Positions 6,600 through 13,834 of a DNA stretch of 48,120 nucleotides are shown here, in pieces. Position numbers and translations under genes: made by a program. The notes below the pieces were generated by a model. It ran no database searches. It was not told the origin of the DNA and saw nothing but the letters and a program-made list of their open reading frames with translations. Where the stretch lies: positions 1 to 48,120 of the forward strand of contig NZ_LSUQ01000019.1 in assembly GCF_001642725.1 (NCBI RefSeq). The letters run 5' to 3'. The DNA comes from Ferroacidibacillus organovorans. Its GTDB lineage: Bacteria; Bacillota; Bacilli; Alicyclobacillales; SLC66. Numbering within the stretch: the first letter of the stretch is position 1; each line of letters begins with the position of its first letter.

Positions 6600-7757
6600 A
6601 TGCGCACGGAACCTTTTGTCCTGTTCTCCCTGATTTGCATGATAGCCATCGCTGCATCGACGTTTACCGCACTGTTTCCGAAACTCCGTCTGCCGACCGC
6701 CGTCCTGGAGTTGTTGCTCGGCATCTTTCTTGGCAAATCAGGATTGCACACACTTCCTATCCCCTCTTGGTTTCACGACGCCTCTTCGCTCGGATTACTC
6801 TATCTCATGTTTTTAGCAGGGCTAGAAATACGGCCGCCGCAAAAAGGAACCCCACAAACGGCACGCGTCCCCTATCTACTCATATTTTCGATGTTTGCAC
6901 AGACGGCCGCACTCTCGATTCTTGCAGGGCAACTGCTTATTCATCTCGGGTGGTCATCCGATCCCCTGCTCAGCTCATTTATCTTTGCAACGACATCCCT
7001 CGGCATTCTGGTGCCAGTCCTACACGAACGTGGACTTTCAGCATCACGATTCGGACAATTAATTCTCCTTACAGCGGTCACCGCAGACATTGCGACTGCG
7101 ACACTGATCGGCATCGCGCTGCCAACGCGATCATCCGCGTTTAGCATTCCCATGCAATTGATCACCATGACAAGTTTGGGATTCCTTCTCTATTTCGCGA
7201 GTCGCATGTTTTTACGTGGCATGCGCAGTCGCGTTCCCATGGCGCGACGCGGTGCGTTTGGCATGCGTGGCGCACTCGCCATTGTCATGGTTTGCGGTGC
7301 GACCGCGCGCGTCATCGGCGCAGAATCGATTCTTGCCGGATTTACGGCAGGTCTTGTAGGTTCATGGCTTGCGGGTGATCAGCACAATGCGCTTCGCAGT
7401 CGACTTGAGACGCTTGGCTATTCCCTTTTCCTGCCCTTTTTCTTCATCTCAACCGGAATGTCTCTCACCCTGACACACGCGCGTATCGACCGTGTAGCCA
7501 GTCATCTTCCACTCTATCTCCTTCTCGCATTCGCCGTCAAAATCATCGGTTCACTCAGCATGCGCTTCCAATTCACATGGCGTGAAACATTTGCGGCAGG
7601 AACGCTGCTCTCCACACGCTTTACGCTCGTGATTGCCGTTGCGGCACTCGCCGCACACGCACATCTGATTGGCCAAACCGAAGAAGCGACTTTATTGCTC
7701 ACAGCGCTTGCAACCGTCATTCTGGCCCCACTCGCTTTTAGCCTTCAAAATCTCTGA
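6600..7757 (+). CDS. Cation:proton antiporter, CPA2 family (membrane domain only)
   Basis: Many TM segments; GLLYLMFLAGLE, TTSLGILVPVLHE, ILAGFTAGL and FLPFFFISTG motifs; SD AAGGAGG. Confidence 0.85.
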   Translation: MRTEPFVLFSLICMIAIAASTFTALFPKLRLPTAVLELLLGIFLGKSGLHTLPIPSWFHDASSLGLLYLMFLAGLEIRPPQKGTPQTARVPYLLIFSMFAQTAALSILAGQLLIHLGWSSDPLLSSFIFATTSLGILVPVLHERGLSASRFGQLILLTAVTADIATATLIGIALPTRSSAFSIPMQLITMTSLGFLLYFASRMFLRGMRSRVPMARRGAFGMRGALAIVMVCGATARVIGAESILAGFTAGLVGSWLAGDQHNALRSRLETLGYSLFLPFFFISTGMSLTLTHARIDRVASHLPLYLLLAFAVKIIGSLSMRFQFTWRETFAAGTLLSTRFTLVIAVAALAAHAHLIGQTEEATLLLTALATVILAPLAFSLQNL

Positions 7758-7777
7758 GTGTGATTCCCACACGCGAA

Positions 7778-7820
7778 TACAAAAAGGGAACATCCAAATG
7801 TGCGATGATCCCTTTTTGTA
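7778..7820. terminator. Bidirectional rho-independent terminator between the convergent CPA2 and brxC genes
   Basis: Inverted repeat TACAAAAAGGGA(A)CATC...GATG(A)TCCCTTTTTGTA with A-tract and T-tract flanks. Confidence 0.85.
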
Positions 7821-7842
7821 CTCTCTTCATCTGGATTGTCAC

Positions 7843-8175
7843 TTAAGCCTTTTCACCGTTTGCAATTGCAGTCGTTATGGACGCGTCCGTAATTTTATAG
7901 TGTGACGTATGCCATATCGCTTTTCCACGTTTAATTAAAATCACTTGGGGTGATGCGTGTCTCACACCGAGTTCATCCGCGAGAGCGAGCGAGAGCGAGC
8001 GTGACTCGATGACTTTAACCATTGCAATGGGGATACTCGCATGTTTCCCGTATTCGGTCACCTGACCGAACGCTGCCGCGCTAACGGGTCAGGTTGTACT
8101 GTGTTTAAAAAGAAGCATCAAATCTGAATTTTCCGCGATCGCAGTTAACGCATCACGCGTCTCAATTTCAATCAT
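7843..8175 (-). CDS. brxC: Monothiol bacilliredoxin BrxC/YtxJ, 110 aa, with in-frame TGA at the catalytic Cys (probable selenocysteine, U29)
   Basis: ATG 8175 with SD GGAGTG. It reads MIEIETRDALTAIAENSDLMLLFKHSTT-TGA-PVSAAAF...GVRHASPQ...WHTSH, matching YtxJ KHSTTCPIS, KHESPQ and WHTSH. The ORF track shows only the part after the TGA. Confidence 0.85.
8047..8088 (-). promoter_or_regulatory. Candidate bacterial SECIS element
   Basis: Perfect hairpin UUCGGUC-AGGU-GACCGAA (8070-8053), with 25 nt between the UGA (8091-8089) and the loop. An additional CCCGU/ACGGG lower pairing is possible. Confidence 0.7.
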
Positions 8176-8189
8176 CGATTTCACTCCAT

Positions 8190-8219
8190 AAAAAATCAGG
8201 GGAGCCTCGTGGCTCCCTC
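8190..8219 (-). terminator. Terminator-like hairpin after the G5/3D gene
   Basis: GGGAGCC-ACGA-GGCTCCC followed by CTGATTTTTT. Confidence 0.65.
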
Positions 8220-8268
8220 CGTCTTGCGGCGCTGTCTGAATCTGCATGCACTGTCTCTTGATATCCCC

Positions 8269-9261
8269 CTACTTACCGAGAATATACACTTGAACGACCT
8301 GACGACCATAATCGATCGCCTGAGAGACAGAGTTAAAACACAGATCAATGCGATACCCCTGAATAGCACCGCCCGTATCATCGGCTACACCATAGCCATA
8401 CCCCGGAATATAAAGTTTCGTTCCGAGTGGAATGATGCTTGGATCTACGGCGATATCCCCATACCCAGCTGGTTGACCCGTAGCGGTTGTACCACCTGGA
8501 TTGGAGTAGGCAGTGGCAATCATGGTGACGACTTGACTTGTCACAAGCGAAGAGTTGCTGCGCGAACTCACGACAGGAGCTGGCGTCGGCGTCGGTTGCG
8601 CCGAACCAACCTCGATGAGTTCAGAAACGGGTCTTCTTACGACCCTGAGGTGACGTACACTGCGCACCAAACGGTTGTTGCGAAAATACTTGGTTACAAT
8701 CACTTTGTCCAACCCTTTTTGTCCACGGCGCGCTACCACATTCGTGCCAGTGACAAAATTGTTGCTCGATTGACGAACGGTCGTGTAGGCAATCGACTGC
8801 ATCATCGACTGAACAACCGAACGCCCGCGGATAATACGAACCTTCATGCCTCGTGTTAGTGGAGCACGGAGAGGAACGCTGACTGAATCCTCGGGTCCCA
8901 GTTCTATCCTCAGTTCGTGAAGCAAGTCGCCTACGTTATGTACTAACGTATGGACGACTGTAGGACGGTGATTCCCAACGGTCAGGAGAATCGGCAACGC
9001 CCTGACGACAACGATCTTCATTCCGTTTTGAAGGAGTGTCGCTCTTGCTGGTTCAACCAAATCATAATCGGCTACATGAACGTGTTGGGATGCGAGATAC
9101 TTCGCAACAGACTCAGTGGCATACGTGCCGCCCGTCGTCATTTTTCCATCCACGGACACGGTCACCGATCGGTAAGGGCTCATCCCCGTCGTCACGCCAA
9201 GCGCTAAAAGCGCGGCGCACGTGGTGGCGATACCTAACCGCATTCGGCGGAACTTCTGCAC
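8269..9261 (-). CDS. YabE/RpfB-like cell-wall protein (ubiquitin-like DUF348 repeats, G5 and 3D domains)
   Basis: Signal/TM segment, G5-like region (GQKGLDKV...PVSELIEVG) and 3D domain ATAY...IAVDPSIIPLGT...DDTGGAI...RIDL. Confidence 0.9.
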   Translation of the reverse strand: MQKFRRMRLGIATTCAALLALGVTTGMSPYRSVTVSVDGKMTTGGTYATESVAKYLASQHVHVADYDLVEPARATLLQNGMKIVVVRALPILLTVGNHRPTVVHTLVHNVGDLLHELRIELGPEDSVSVPLRAPLTRGMKVRIIRGRSVVQSMMQSIAYTTVRQSSNNFVTGTNVVARRGQKGLDKVIVTKYFRNNRLVRSVRHLRVVRRPVSELIEVGSAQPTPTPAPVVSSRSNSSLVTSQVVTMIATAYSNPGGTTATGQPAGYGDIAVDPSIIPLGTKLYIPGYGYGVADDTGGAIQGYRIDLCFNSVSQAIDYGRQVVQVYILGK

Positions 9262-9390: not shown

Positions 9391-10860
9391 CTACGGCAAG
9401 AGTGCAGGTTGAGCCATCGGTTGCAAAATCAATGTCGAAAACTGCGATGTGCCTGTGACAGGATTCGTTACAAATCGACGGTCGTACACCAAGACAAGAT
9501 TTCTCGATGGACTCGCATCGCGAGTATGGTTAATGGTAGTCCCCCCATCGTGAGAAAACACGCCATGACGCTGTTTAGCTCCAGCTTCTAGGATGACATT
9601 CTGCGCTTCAATGCCACCATAGAGAGAAAACTTGCCTGATGCATTGGTGATGGAAACTGTGGACGCGCTCGCGAAGAAGGCGTGAAGAATGATAGCCGAT
9701 TCATCGCCTTTACGTTTAACACGCGTTGGCGAGATTTTAATAGATCCGTTCGAAAAAAGTTCGAGACGTACAGTGTTGCCCTGATCATTACCACGTTGTG
9801 CGAGATTCGAAAAATCGCTACTGCCGTTTACAAAAATAGCGTCGTCTGCATTTAAGTTGCCTTGTACGATGAGTTTTCCAGTGACATAGATCGGTTTGCG
9901 AAAGGTTACCGTCGTCCCTTTGGAAATGATAAGGTTGCCTTGCACATACAAGGGCTGATCGATCGTAAACTTGCGAGAGCGTGTTTTCACTCCGTCGGAT
10001 GATACAATAAACCGATCACGCAATGAATTCGATACCTCGTGTGCGTGTCCCAGATAAAGTACATCAGCTTCCGAAGTAAGTTTGGCTGCTTCCTGTTGAA
10101 TGATAGATAAAACGGACGGTGGAGAAAAGGATGGAAATGAATTCACCTGCGTGACCCCTGCAAAATACTTTGGGAGGGTTGATACTGAAAGAGGAACCTC
10201 TATCGCTTCATTTAATAAATCCACTTGCTTGCCCACCGCGAGGGAGTACGGAGCAGCTAGGTACGGCAAAGCAGACGACATACTTTGCTTTAAATACAGT
10301 GTACCTCCCACTGCCACATTTCCTTCTAATTCCGGTCCCCCAGTGATGTTCAGGTTGCCTGGCGTATAGATTACATCATCGAGCGAAGGGAGCATTCCAG
10401 AAAAGGAAACCGTGCCTTGTAACGTATTTGACATATTGCCAGAATACCCTGTCACCTTAAGCTCCATCTGGTCAAAGATGACAGAAGATACGTTTGCTGA
10501 AAGTGAGCGTGGTCCATAGGCGATGGTTAGATGAAATTCACGTTGCTCCGTGTTGATCTGACTCGCCCAACTCATCCATGTCGACTCAACCGCCAGAAGG
10601 TTTGCGCGCGCGACAGATAGGGATGGAAAATTACCGTTTGTTGACACCGCATTCCACAATGTTTGCAATTCGTGATACGCTGATAGATATCCACTGCGCG
10701 CATTCGATAGCGCTTGTTCATGGTTCTTCAATTGATTTGAATACATCATCTGTTGAACTGTCAGACCGAAAAACGCGGTCAAGAGAACGGTTAACATGAC
10801 GATCGAAACGAGTACTGCCAAAAAGGTCGATCCTTCTTCGTGATACGTTGAACGATCCAT
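9391..10860 (-). CDS. Large PilX/GspK-like minor pilin, possible tip adhesin
   Basis: Prepilin-like EEG|STFLAVLVSIVML lacking E5; C-terminal repeated (P)IYVxGxL beta motifs; last gene of the T4P operon. Confidence 0.65.
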   Translation of the reverse strand: MDRSTYHEEGSTFLAVLVSIVMLTVLLTAFFGLTVQQMMYSNQLKNHEQALSNARSGYLSAYHELQTLWNAVSTNGNFPSLSVARANLLAVESTWMSWASQINTEQREFHLTIAYGPRSLSANVSSVIFDQMELKVTGYSGNMSNTLQGTVSFSGMLPSLDDVIYTPGNLNITGGPELEGNVAVGGTLYLKQSMSSALPYLAAPYSLAVGKQVDLLNEAIEVPLSVSTLPKYFAGVTQVNSFPSFSPPSVLSIIQQEAAKLTSEADVLYLGHAHEVSNSLRDRFIVSSDGVKTRSRKFTIDQPLYVQGNLIISKGTTVTFRKPIYVTGKLIVQGNLNADDAIFVNGSSDFSNLAQRGNDQGNTVRLELFSNGSIKISPTRVKRKGDESAIILHAFFASASTVSITNASGKFSLYGGIEAQNVILEAGAKQRHGVFSHDGGTTINHTRDASPSRNLVLVYDRRFVTNPVTGTSQFSTLILQPMAQPALLP

Positions 10861-11400
10861 CTAATACCCACCCCCTGCCACATATTGCACGTTTTGCATC
10901 ACATGAAACGCCTCTGAAGTGCCAATTGCCGTCGCATTCAGGTGAAAAACGACGATATTTTGTTGAACTGTCATCGATGAATTCCGAAAATTTACATACG
11001 GGGTATTCCACGTCACACGTTTGATTTGCACTCCAGATGAATTGAATGCGGTCTCTTGAAATGTGTTCTGTCCATCAGGCAATCGAATCAATTGAAGATC
11101 CACCGTGTCACCATAGACATCAGTGCCTATCAATACACCCGAAGCGTTCACATGTGCTGATCCGAAGGTCATGTTTTGAACGAATTGTTGCAGATCAGTC
11201 TCCACTAATTCCAGGCTTGTATAGACGTGTTGTCGAGATACGACTTCGTTGAAACTAGCGGTTTCAAATGAAAAAATATAGATGATAAAACCCAGAATCA
11301 CAGTCGAAATGACGAGTGCAGCAAGGAGTTCAAGCAGCGTCGTCCCACGCTCTAAACCGTCAAGAAGATGAAAATCGGCGATCTTCTGATGGTCGATCAT
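10861..11400 (-). CDS. Type IV minor pilin (PilW-like)
   Basis: ERG|TTLLELLAALVI N-methyl motif. Start moved to ATG 11400, which forms an ATGA overlap with the upstream stop. Confidence 0.8.
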   Translation of the reverse strand: MIDHQKIADFHLLDGLERGTTLLELLAALVISTVILGFIIYIFSFETASFNEVVSRQHVYTSLELVETDLQQFVQNMTFGSAHVNASGVLIGTDVYGDTVDLQLIRLPDGQNTFQETAFNSSGVQIKRVTWNTPYVNFRNSSMTVQQNIVVFHLNATAIGTSEAFHVMQNVQYVAGGGY

Positions 11401-11831
11401 CTTGTAAAAAGTTGTTTTAATGTTACCCTTTCTGTGACATCGGTTCCACGAAATGTTGTCACCCACGAGACGGTCACCTCCACATCTACTAATCCGTTTG
11501 CATAGCGAGGTTCTGTCGACGTAAGGTTTAACAGAGAAAGATGGTATGTCGTTCCGTCGTACATTAGCGTCTTTGGTTCAGTTGTATTCAGTGTAACAAG
11601 CGCTCCTTGTTGTGCCATAACGGTAAATTGTTGATTGGCGAGCATCGACGCCTGCTGTTCTTGCACAGACAAGTGTTCATAAAAAAGAAAAGAGGAAAGA
11701 ACCATGAGAAGCACCGTAGAAAAAATCGCAAGTACGACAACACTCGCCAATGTTTCCAGCAGCGTGAGTCCATCTTGACGCAATGGTACGCTCGCCGTTT
11801 TGCGACCACAAACATCTCGCTTAAGCTGCAT
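11397..11831 (-). CDS. Type IV minor pilin (PilV-like)
   Basis: QDG|LTLLETLASVVVLAIF and C-terminal VEVTVSW; start codon uncertain. Confidence 0.8.
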   Translation of the reverse strand: MQLKRDVCGRKTASVPLRQDGLTLLETLASVVVLAIFSTVLLMVLSSFLFYEHLSVQEQQASMLANQQFTVMAQQGALVTLNTTEPKTLMYDGTTYHLSLLNLTSTEPRYANGLVDVEVTVSWVTTFRGTDVTERVTLKQLFTR

Positions 11832-12366
11832 AGGGCACAACACACGTAAAATTCAATTGAGAAGCGCCGTTCGCTGAAAGGGATAGATTTACCGATGAAA
11901 TTCCGGTAATCCACGGTGCCATTTGCACGTCTTGAATAAACTGTAGAAGTTGTGAGCGCTGTCCTGCGAGAGATAATTGCATCGCGAGATCAGACACGGC
12001 AGCCGATGCTCCGGAAAACCCAGCGTTCGCTGATGAGATTGGTGCGCTCGATGTCGTAGAAAACGACACATTCAAGATATGCGCGTGGGTCTCTCCGGCA
12101 ATTTTGTGAAAAAGCTGCAGCCAGGTTGTCTGCGCATTTCCTGTTTCCAAACGTTTTTCGAGCCCGCCTGATTGACGATCCTGTTTCAGCAATTGGCTCT
12201 GCTGAGCGACTTGTACAGATAGAATCTCAACCTGACTCTGAAGGGCTGTAATCATCTGATCATTATGAGTTACGCGCATCTGTGTCAAGCTATAAATACC
12301 GAGTAAGAGTGCCATGATGATGAACACAAAAATAAGATTGCGCGTTGATCGATTACGTAGGATCAC
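11821..12366 (-). CDS. pilO: PilO-like alignment-complex protein
   Basis: True start is GTG 12366 (SD GGAGGTG inside the pilN end). TM plus coiled coil plus LSLAGQRSQLLQFIQDV; follows pilN. Confidence 0.7.
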   Translation of the reverse strand: MILRNRSTRNLIFVFIIMALLLGIYSLTQMRVTHNDQMITALQSQVEILSVQVAQQSQLLKQDRQSGGLEKRLETGNAQTTWLQLFHKIAGETHAHILNVSFSTTSSAPISSANAGFSGASAAVSDLAMQLSLAGQRSQLLQFIQDVQMAPWITGISSVNLSLSANGASQLNFTCVVPYAA

Positions 12367-12890
12367 AGAAGAACCGCACCTCCCTTGACTTGAACCGTCA
12401 TTGTGAATGAAAAACCGGAAGACTGAAGAGATGTTACCGATTGCGTAAACGTTGACTGAATCGAGCGCAGGGTATTGAGTTTTAATTCGAATTGGGCAAT
12501 TTCCAAAAGCGTTAATGCATTTCCTGAGATGATCAGCGTGTTCCCATTTAAGGACAGTGTGCTCAAACTTGTCCCCGCCGGAAGGATACTCATTACTTCC
12601 GAGATGAGCCTCTGAACCATCCACTGTGAACCAACAGACTGAGCCAATTGAGAATTTGCGACATACATTTGCAGTTTTCCGTTTAAAGCATTTTGCTCTT
12701 GAAGAAGAGCGGATTGCTGAAAACGAATGGATTTCAGCGTTTGTTGCTCTGTGGTTAGTTGTGATTGATCGATTACGGTCACCGCTGCGGCGATTGCCGA
12801 AACACCTAGCAATAGGGTAATTAGCACACTGTTCACAAGGTATCGCGAACGCTCCCACATTGTTCGCCGCGGGAGAAGGTTGATATTCAA
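12363..12890 (-). CDS. pilN: PilN-like protein
   Basis: N-terminal INLLP PilM-binding motif, TM and coiled coil. Confidence 0.85.
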   Translation of the reverse strand: MNINLLPRRTMWERSRYLVNSVLITLLLGVSAIAAAVTVIDQSQLTTEQQTLKSIRFQQSALLQEQNALNGKLQMYVANSQLAQSVGSQWMVQRLISEVMSILPAGTSLSTLSLNGNTLIISGNALTLLEIAQFELKLNTLRSIQSTFTQSVTSLQSSGFSFTMTVQVKGGAVLL

Positions 12891-13834
12891 CGCACGCCCT
12901 CCTTGATTGCGAGGCCAAGCGAAACAAACTCTGACACCGGTGTTTGATTCATGATTTGTCGAAAATCATTCGACGATTCGCTTTTCCTGTACGCTGATAA
13001 ATCGTAAAACGTCGATTCGCCACGGTTCGTCAGTATTTGTTTGAACAGATCGTGCACGTGGAGCTGAGAATAGAAAAGATATACATTTTTTTGTAAAAAT
13101 AAACCGGGAAACGACATTTGGAAAAAATTTAAAATACGCTCAATCTCAGAAGTGAGCATTTGTGCAAATTGAGTGGAAGAGAAATCTGTTTGCACGTCAC
13201 TTACAAGTTCTAAATTTCGATAAAAGTAGAGAAATCCCTGTCGAAAAATGCTGATCGATAAATCTTCTTTTTCGACGTGAATCAACGTATAAAAACATGG
13301 TTCAACACAGGTTTTTGAGATTAAGCGATACAGAGCGAGAGGCGGAATATCAACCGCAATCGGCTGCAACTGTGCGCGTTTTGCCAATTCGACCGCCCGG
13401 TTGACGTGTTCGCGTGGCGCAGCGATCAAACTGATTGCCGTCAACTTCGGATCGATCTCCGTGAGTGGAGGAACTACAACCGCGTCAAACAGGGCATCCT
13501 CAAACGGCAGATGAATCGAAAGACCCAACTCATTTTGGATCATCGATTTGAGGTACTGATCAGGAACGGTGGGAACCGTCACATAGCGTACGATAAACTG
13601 GTGATTTGCAAGACCAATTACCGTTTTTACGCCCTGAAAACCGTTCCCCTTCATCACCTTACCCAAATCTCGGGTCTGTGTTGAATCTCCCGATGTCTCA
13701 TCGATGTCTTCGCTATTTCTTTGTTCGTTACTTCCTAGCCGCGTTACATTGCTTCGCGTGTGCCTAATGGCTGTCCACCGAAAGCTACGCGCTTCAAGGT
13801 ACAAACCTACTCGCGTCCTTGCCATGGTGCACAT
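12887..13834 (-). CDS. pilM: PilM-like actin-fold protein (divergent)
   Basis: VRYVTVP, HLPF, AVDIPPLAL, EIERILNFF and SLGLAIK motifs; precedes pilN. Confidence 0.8.
   Translation of the reverse strand: MCTMARTRVGLYLEARSFRWTAIRHTRSNVTRLGSNEQRNSEDIDETSGDSTQTRDLGKVMKGNGFQGVKTVIGLANHQFIVRYVTVPTVPDQYLKSMIQNELGLSIHLPFEDALFDAVVVPPLTEIDPKLTAISLIAAPREHVNRAVELAKRAQLQPIAVDIPPLALYRLISKTCVEPCFYTLIHVEKEDLSISIFRQGFLYFYRNLELVSDVQTDFSSTQFAQMLTSEIERILNFFQMSFPGLFLQKNVYLFYSQLHVHDLFKQILTNRGESTFYDLSAYRKSESSNDFRQIMNQTPVSEFVSLGLAIKEGVR

Follow-up and report, generated by a model that had tools for sequence, protein, structure and literature searches.

A ytxJ (brxC) gene on the reverse strand of the Ferroacidibacillus organovorans sequence analyzed here (the window, 48,120 nucleotides in all) very probably encodes a selenocysteine (Sec)-containing monothiol bacilliredoxin, Sec-BrxC/YtxJ. 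We regard ytxJ as almost certainly a genuine selenoprotein gene, the insertion of selenium at its in-frame UGA being predicted from sequence. By analogy with characterized homologs, the product would probably act as a bacilliredoxin, its de-bacillithiolation activity and recycling route being those proposed below.

The ytxJ frame begins with an ATG at position 8175, ends with a TAA at 7845-7843, and contains a single internal stop, a TGA at 8091-8089 flanked as LLFKHSTT-TGA-PVSAAAF; it is otherwise free of stops and frameshifts. Its start methionine matches the start of the homologs. The read-through product contains no Cys, leaving Sec29 as its only redox-active residue, and the predicted tryptic peptide across this position is HSTT-U-PVSAAAFGQVTEYGK. 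The read-through protein matches PF11009 BrxC (E 7.1e-30, 103.3 bits, cut-off 24.2) from residue 3 to 99 and profile positions 2-101 of 102, as well as the equivalog-level model TIGR04019 YtxJ (99.9 bits, cut-off 77.25). Because these matches run across codon 29, a single domain spans the TGA. Seven columns are invariant in the alignment with 33 Cys-containing homologs (H25, C29, S32, H73, P76, Q77, and S91). The original prediction described a 110-codon frame with a good Shine-Dalgarno sequence and a lone TGA on the redox Cys; every detail checked against sequence, translation, and alignment was accurate, and the BrxC/YtxJ identity that it proposed is borne out by two profiles above their curated cut-offs. 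It also anticipated that annotation pipelines would call a 72-aa fragment. Ordinary open reading frame (ORF) calling indeed replaces the full gene by two pieces, of 72 aa (7843-8061) and 52 aa, and the NCBI entry ATW55_07925 (Ferroacidibacillus organovorans) is a 72-aa "hypothetical protein" 80% identical to the part following the TGA.

Table 1. Features of the ytxJ locus (positions in the window) and additional selenoprotein genes of the source genome
Feature	Position	Strand	Details
ytxJ/brxC gene	7843..8175	(-)	110 sense codons + TAA; from sequence and translation
UGA codon 29, predicted to be read as selenocysteine	8089..8091	(-)	Aligned to the invariant catalytic Cys, which is C31 in B. 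subtilis BrxC
Shine-Dalgarno GGAG	8184..8187	(-)	8 nt 5' of the ATG at 8175; read from sequence
bSECIS-like element	8047..8088	(-)	Minimum free energy, covariation, motif test, published constraints
Terminator-like hairpin + T-run	8191..8217	(-)	7 pairs, 6 of them G-C; between DUF348-G5-3D gene and ytxJ
Strong hairpin with A- and U-runs on either side	7775..7823	(-)	About 20 nt past the TAA
Sec-Trx	source genome		Motif WUPGC; Pfam domain across TGA
Sec-Grx	source genome		Motif ATUVRC; Pfam domain across TGA
Sec AhpC/TSA Prx-like	source genome		Motif TWUPNC; Pfam domain across TGA
Sec AhpF-N-like	source genome		Motif TPTUPYCP; Pfam domain across TGA

Upstream of ytxJ and on the same strand is a DUF348-G5-3D gene (8269-9261). 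The terminator-like hairpin between the two genes (8217-8200, followed by its T-run) lies only about 15 nt ahead of the ytxJ ribosome-binding site, and no convincing promoter was found. Downstream lies a convergent Na+/H+ exchanger gene. The hairpin at 7823-7775 (-25.9 kcal/mol, z -7.06, equaled by 0 of 200 shuffles), which a simple terminator scanner missed, is likely a bidirectional terminator common to ytxJ and the exchanger gene. A search of positions 7750-8300 against Rfam identified no family, the sole match being a chance lncRNA (E 0.57).

An AlphaFold (AF2) model based on a 34-sequence alignment has a thioredoxin fold (pLDDT 97.0, pTM 0.90). Residue 29 is modeled directly before helix 30-43, at the classic N-cap site for the nucleophile; ahead of strand 77-82 comes the invariant S75-P76-Q77. 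The best fold match in Foldseek was PDB 3IV4 (TM 0.88, rmsd 1.3 Å), followed by thioredoxins. A sequence search likewise returned this entry and no other solved structure (E 2e-10), its Cys being aligned to U29. It is a 112-aa Cys form deposited as a "putative oxidoreductase with a thioredoxin fold," for which the entry records no function, and is 28% identical to Sec-YtxJ in the Foldseek alignment. The redoxin domain of the Deinococcus monothiol bacilliredoxin AbxC (NF053651) was weakly matched at 44.1 bits; with a cut-off of 340 bits and a 202-position, two-part protein, AbxC was excluded as the family.

The closest point of reference for function is B. subtilis BrxC (YtxJ; Gaballa, Su and Helmann 2021, PMC8113031). 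As described there, BrxC strips bacillithiol from S-bacillithiolated GapA, GapB, BrxB, and Bdr, requires its single Cys31 for activity, and itself becomes bacillithiolated. The two proteins share family (PF11009/TIGR04019), length, thioredoxin fold, and a single active-site residue in a T-x-P-[I/V]-S context. They differ in that Sec, specified by UGA and a SECIS-type hairpin, would take the place of the catalytic Cys, and in gene order: B. subtilis brxC belongs to a ytxGH-brxC operon according to the same paper, whereas here a DUF348-G5-3D gene precedes ytxJ, with a terminator-like hairpin between them.

The link to bacillithiol suggested in the original prediction is supported, with reservations. 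Family membership speaks for it, as do bshA (509 bits), bshC (371 bits), and a single brxA/B gene (183 bits) in the source genome, all above their cut-offs; bshA, bshC, and BrxA/B are a point of resemblance to the B. subtilis BrxC system. The link is weakened in two respects: the best bshB1 match scored 100.5 bits, below the cut-off of 182.5 (three LmbE-type paralogs are present), and Bdr/YpdA (TIGR04018), the partner of BrxC in B. subtilis, was not found in the source genome (best match 59.9 bits, cut-off 339.9). The weak TIGR04018 matches there include TrxR-like flavoproteins, for instance at C12:23855-24457 and C16:28371-29348. None of 18 further genomes in the source family has Bdr/YpdA above the cut-off, and among 61 genomes of the order it occurs in one genus only (12 of 15 genomes), a genus without YtxJ. 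Pairing with Bdr/YpdA characterizes the B. subtilis system rather than the YtxJ family as such. Since Bdr/YpdA was not found, the B. subtilis pathway does not carry over in its entirety, and the occurrence of YtxJ without Bdr/YpdA across the order points to a different route for recycling the oxidized protein and bacillithiol disulfide.

We propose that SelB carrying Sec-tRNA(Sec) would bind the hairpin just past the UGA and insert Sec at codon 29. The resulting protein of 110 residues would have a thioredoxin fold, with Sec29 capping the N-terminus of helix 30-43. If it behaves as B. subtilis BrxC does, its Sec29 selenolate would attack the mixed disulfide between a protein and bacillithiol and free the protein thiol, passing through a BrxC-Se-S-bacillithiol intermediate. 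A second thiol, either bacillithiol or another reductant, would then resolve this intermediate.

It is conceivable, though rather unlikely, that the gene encodes a genuine Sec protein whose main role is something other than general de-bacillithiolation, such as selenium/sulfur trafficking or service to a specific partner. Bdr/YpdA is missing wherever YtxJ occurs in the order, and in three genomes of the Symbiobacteriaceae type (a second group with Sec-YtxJ, described below) selA lies about 1.1 kb from bshC; in the one genome inspected the order is selA, a SelD-like AIRS gene, and bshC, the last two overlapping by 4 bases. The source genome, however, has no such linkage, its loci being spread over contigs C34 (selA-selD), C14 (bshC), and C19 (ytxJ). 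The match to YtxJ at equivalog level and an active-site motif unchanged save for Sec also speak against a different main role.

The original prediction proposed a search for selA, selB, selD, and tRNA-Sec, and all four are present in the source genome, a draft of 3.03 Mb in 98 contigs that is 96.8% complete. The protein genes score above curated cut-offs (selA 567 bits, selB 372 bits, selD 388 bits), selD has its own in-frame TGA at the canonical SGUGCK site, and the tRNA-Sec exceeds the Rfam gathering score (63.3 bits) and is called tRNA-SeC with anticodon TCA by ARAGORN. No match to FdhA (TIGR01553) above the cut-off was found in this genome, weaker matches to molybdopterin enzymes being without in-frame stops; judged by the TIGR01553 query, the Sec trait is therefore not maintained by formate dehydrogenase in this organism. 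A scan of the genome for SECIS-like hairpins combined with coding potential gave 1429 ranked raw candidates, and Pfam was run on 12 picked by hand from the best 45 of these. Four of the 12 are further thioredoxin-fold selenoprotein genes, each with one domain across the TGA (table 1). Another four (L071-L074) were rejected as adjacent genes sharing one frame. The last four lacked a convincing domain: nothing in Pfam matched L070, L075, or L077, and the PDZ match of L076 fell short of the threshold. The selenoproteome of this organism may be larger than the genes found among the 12 candidates.

The TGA is shared with relatives. Our sample of the order comprised 61 genomes, of which 31 have YtxJ (34 matches in all), and 23 of the 34 genes were checked codon by codon. 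The catalytic codon is TGA in nine of these and TGC or TGT in 14, the remaining 11 matches showing no stop in the alignment spanning the catalytic site. The nine TGA-bearing genomes represent five genera (source genome G000, G001, G005, G007, G011 in its second copy, G013, G014, G017, and G056), and the Sec form is the sole YtxJ copy in eight of them. The recurrence of TGA at the same codon with sequence conserved on both sides, which had been suggested as a check, was thus observed, and argues that the alignment of Cys with TGA is not due to chance. All nine TGA-bearing genomes have selA above its cut-off and all eight YtxJ genomes without such a selA (one of them only 60% complete) have Cys, counts that carry no statistical claim since the relatives are kin rather than independent samples; a further 14 genomes combine selA with a Cys-form YtxJ.

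Immediately 3' of the UGA is a hairpin resembling a bacterial SECIS element (bSECIS). Its lower stem is formed by CCCGU (8088-8084) and ACGGG (8051-8047) and its upper stem by GUUCGGUC (8071-8064) and GACCGAAU (8059-8052), enclosing an apical AGGU loop (8063-8060) located 25 nt 3' of the UGA. RNAfold gives a stem of 7-8 bp and minimum free energies of -13.0 (39 nt) and -20.0 (52 nt). The bSECIS constraints set out in PMC13188914 are an apical loop of 3-9 nt, an upper stem of 4-16 bp, a G in the first two loop positions, a distance of 16-37 nt from the UGA, and a minimum free energy of -7.5 kcal/mol or lower; the ytxJ hairpin lies within all of these published limits. The other Sec forms likewise each have a hairpin of 5-8 bp with a loop of 3-5 nt starting 19-25 nt past the UGA. 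Stem sequences vary among genera, and the hairpin sits in coding sequence with differing amino acids. In a loop-anchored alignment of eight Sec forms, one row of which (with a 3-nt loop) is out of register by one column, six of the seven pairs change on both sides. Pairing is found in 89% of the cells of this alignment compared with 27-52% in controls with the partner slid, a contrast inflated by counting covariation on the sequences that gave the structure.

A strict bSECIS-type test was passed by 16 of 18 distinct Sec forms, the two misses (L024 and L061) being hairpins with two G-U pairs that RNAfold finds and the script, allowing one, does not. Only 1 of 14 Cys forms passed, and the background rate among 23,635 sampled genomic TGAs was 8.7%. 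One Cys form, L038, is alone among the Cys forms in keeping the stem, but with an AUGU loop in place of AGGU. The Trx, Grx, Prx-like, AhpF-N-like, and selD genes of the source genome have hairpins with stems of 5-7 bp and loops at +17 to +23 (GGU, GGU, GGG, and GGU in the four new genes and GGC in selD), and the YtxJ hairpin is of the same kind as those of these five selenoprotein genes. An alternative minimum free energy fold pairs ACCUGACC, which includes the UGA, with GGUCAGGU; it was set aside for the AGGU-loop hairpin because the latter is conserved and covaries across genera. ACC precedes the TGA in 7-8 of the nine Sec loci of the order, and the ACCUGACC/GGUCAGGU pairing may hold within the source genus.

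Leaky read-through of UGA occurs in bacteria, and the codon could in principle be decoded without selenium, whether by a suppressor tRNA or through near-cognate insertion of Trp or Cys. We consider this highly unlikely for ytxJ. In the order, the TGA is never found without selA above its cut-off, and it goes together with a covarying hairpin of SECIS type that is nearly confined to the Sec forms in the strict test. Trp in place of the invariant catalytic Cys would be inactive. TGA is also the most common ordinary stop of the source genome, ending 1298 of the 2567 ORFs that are 200 codons or longer, which indicates that it has not been reassigned genome-wide.

The Sec form extends beyond the source family. 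Scanning species genomes for the exact motif [F/Y]-K-H-S-[S/T]-T-TGA-P-[I/V]-S returned 15 loci, all of them full-length PF11009 proteins with TGA at the catalytic site. Six belong to the source family and nine to a separate clade (support 93/91), whose records are titled Symbiobacteriaceae (4), Bacillota (3), Clostridia (1), and, in one evidently mislabeled case, a Mycobacterium leprae MAG. Members of this Symbiobacteriaceae-type clade have a hairpin with the stem GCCCAC/GUGGGC and a CGUGC loop about 21 nt from the UGA, and of five genomes inspected, four have selA and four have bshC above cut-off; being picked by their TGA pattern, these records are uninformative on the frequency of Cys forms in that group. 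In an even sample of the class (251 genomes, 146 with YtxJ), a stop was present in 0 of the 150 matches listed, the source genome's own being among 11 matches outside those 150, and we conclude that the Sec form is rare and confined to few lineages. When the catalytic column was masked, a tree built from 32 sequences, its Symbiobacteriaceae-type members all chosen by their TGA, required six changes between Sec and Cys, at least three of them forced by well-supported branches. Two switches are very recent. One separates G052 (Cys) from G056 (Sec) within a single genus. The other is seen between two syntenic contigs in a single MAG, which align colinearly for 2272 bases at 88.9% DNA identity, one having TGC and the other TGA; they more likely represent two populations binned together than paralogs.

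For a decaying ytxJ to acquire a nonsense codon in place of the catalytic Cys would take one base change (TGC or TGT to TGA) and would leave the 72-aa remnant that standard callers report, yet a pseudogene is very improbable given how the gene has evolved. The TGA is kept in the nine genomes and five genera of the order and in the nine Symbiobacteriaceae-type records at protein identities of 38-73%, additional stops and frameshifts are absent, and no second YtxJ copy exists in eight of the nine Sec-bearing genomes. Between the source genome and its congener G001, dN/dS is 0.27 over the 28 codons before the TGA (dS 0.84) and 0.10 over the 77 codons after it (dS 1.3); for a pair from another genus the values are 0.13 and 0.11, respectively. 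Both halves of ytxJ are under purifying selection, and the low ratios on either side at a dS of about 1 indicate that the gene has not been dead since before the lineages split. A sequencing or assembly error, a concern that came with the original prediction and with a 98-contig draft, is refuted for practical purposes by three contigs (X5, X6, and X7; sediment, mine drainage, and an unspecified metagenome, from three other studies), which cover 7800-8300 at more than 99% identity and keep the TGA while each differing from the window at 2-4 positions (five distinct sites: 7870, 7998, 8118, 8136, and 8188), and by the TGA of related species.

Sec-YtxJ appears to be an uncatalogued selenoprotein family. 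Neither PF11009, TIGR04019, YtxJ, nor BrxC is named among the 87 selenoprotein families tabulated in PMC9312934 (2022) or the 119 families and subfamilies tabulated in PMC13188914 (2026), the latter taking in families known only from GenBank annotation, and Sec-YtxJ is not among the nine new families in the main-text Table 3 of the deep-Sep study (PMC12013277). Full-text literature searches returned no paper joining YtxJ with selenocysteine or DUF2847 with selenoprotein, and only one unrelated review for bacilliredoxin with selenoprotein; no Sec-YtxJ was among the matches listed for bacillithiol with selenocysteine. The statement in the original prediction that no characterized Sec-BrxC was known therefore stands for the catalogs and literature searched, an unpublished database annotation being possible.

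The family is of an expected type rather than categorically new, exchange of Sec and Cys in thioredoxin-fold redoxins being a well-known pattern in the accounts of PMC9312934 and PMC13188914. As presented in these catalogs, Sec thioredoxins, glutaredoxins, and Prx-like proteins resemble Sec-YtxJ in having a thioredoxin fold whose first active-site helix is N-capped by Sec instead of the nucleophilic Cys, abundant Cys homologs, and a bSECIS just 3' of the UGA. Those redoxins use a resolving Cys in UxxC or TxxU motifs and belong to the glutathione and thioredoxin systems, whereas Sec-YtxJ is mono-chalcogen (T-U-P-V-S, no Cys) and would belong to the bacillithiol system. Sec-BrxC is apparently the first selenoprotein of the bacillithiol system and a mono-selenol redoxin.

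The bacillithiol redox system, hitherto described with Cys enzymes only, thereby gains a first sign of a selenium-dependent form, in a gene of which annotation pipelines keep 72 aa as a "hypothetical protein." The family has one redox residue, no Cys, and closely related Sec/Cys pairs, and so offers a clean natural system for assessing the benefit of Sec over Cys in a monothiol redoxin. More speculatively, and with only a small chance of being right, Sec-BrxC could be the entry to a Bdr-independent, selenium-based bacillithiol relay, or could shuttle selenium between bacillithiol adducts and SelD, the shuttle being hinted at by the selA-selD-bshC gene string of the Symbiobacteriaceae-type genomes. 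As a relay, it would form a thiol/selenol network with Sec-Trx, Sec-Grx, and the Sec Prx-like and Sec AhpF-N-like proteins in Alicyclobacillales-type bacteria of mine drainage, where a selenol may be favored because it stays ionized and reactive when a thiol would not. If true, either the relay or the selenium shuttle would give selenium a new physiological role in the Bacillota.

The switch between selenocysteine (Sec) and cysteine at the catalytic codon of YtxJ can be followed within a single metagenome-assembled genome (MAG), in which two contigs carrying the gene (L038, G011:C43, and L043, G011:C19) are colinear over 2272 bases with 88.9% identity. One contig has TGC and a downstream hairpin with the apical loop AUGU, the other TGA and the loop AGGU. 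This pair is a very recent Sec/Cys switch, the two contigs probably representing two related populations in one bin. A Sec-YtxJ gene is also present in L051 (JBLNEM010000133.1), titled 'MAG: Mycobacterium leprae isolate MAG73', and groups with the Symbiobacteriaceae-type sequences, a separate clade of Sec-YtxJ MAG records; the Mycobacterium leprae label on this contig or MAG looks wrong.

YtxJ and the reductase Bdr/YpdA cooperate in Bacillus subtilis, but in the 61 genomes sampled from the order of the window genome they are mutually exclusive. None of the 31 YtxJ-bearing genomes of this sample has a YpdA above the cut-off; YpdA occurs in 12 genomes, every one of them from a single genus in which YtxJ is found in none of 15 genomes.

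The promoter scan found no promoter-like site between the ribosome-binding site of ytxJ and the terminator-like hairpin preceding it (table). It is possible that ytxJ is transcribed by read-through or from a promoter type outside the coverage of the scan. Elsewhere in the window, the minus strand of 9391-12927 encodes a series of ORFs with pseudopilin-like hydrophobic N-termini, of which the table lists two examples, together with a 489-aa protein having only a weak adhesin-like Pfam match. Judged solely by its translations, this region is a possible gene cluster for a type IV pilus or a competence pseudopilus.

Features of the window, the window genome (G000) and a Symbiobacteriaceae-type locus (L081, G295:C36:22000-32000)
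Feature	Location	Strand	Remark
Terminator-like hairpin with T-run	window 8191-8217	-	only ~15 nt upstream of ytxJ ribosome-binding site
Pseudopilin-like ORF	window 11397-11843	-	hydrophobic N-terminus
Pseudopilin-like ORF	window 10861-11466	-	hydrophobic N-terminus
AhpF-N-like/Thioredoxin_3 protein	G000 C76:8341-9024	+	motif TPTUPYCP
Glutaredoxin	G000 C24:6584-6829	-	motif ATUVRC
AhpC/TSA Prx-like protein	G000 C53:13635-14168	+	motif TWUPNC
Thioredoxin	G000 C11:33621-33929	+	motif WUPGC
SelD	G000 C34:8759-9679	+	motif SGUGCK
selA	L081 5615-7117	-	Symbiobacteriaceae-type genome
AIRS/AIRS_C gene, selD-like	L081 4535-5509	-	between selA and bshC
bshC	L081 2898-4538	-	last in order selA, AIRS/AIRS_C gene, bshC

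On the minus strand of L081 (2898-7117), the selD-like AIRS gene and bshC overlap by 4 bases, which suggests that Sec-synthesis and bacillithiol-synthesis genes are co-transcribed in this locus. About 1.1 kb lies between selA and bshC in two more Symbiobacteriaceae-type genomes. The window genome contains at least five selenoprotein genes besides ytxJ (table), and a Sec-type formate dehydrogenase was not found in it; thiol-redox proteins seem to be the users of the Sec trait in this organism.
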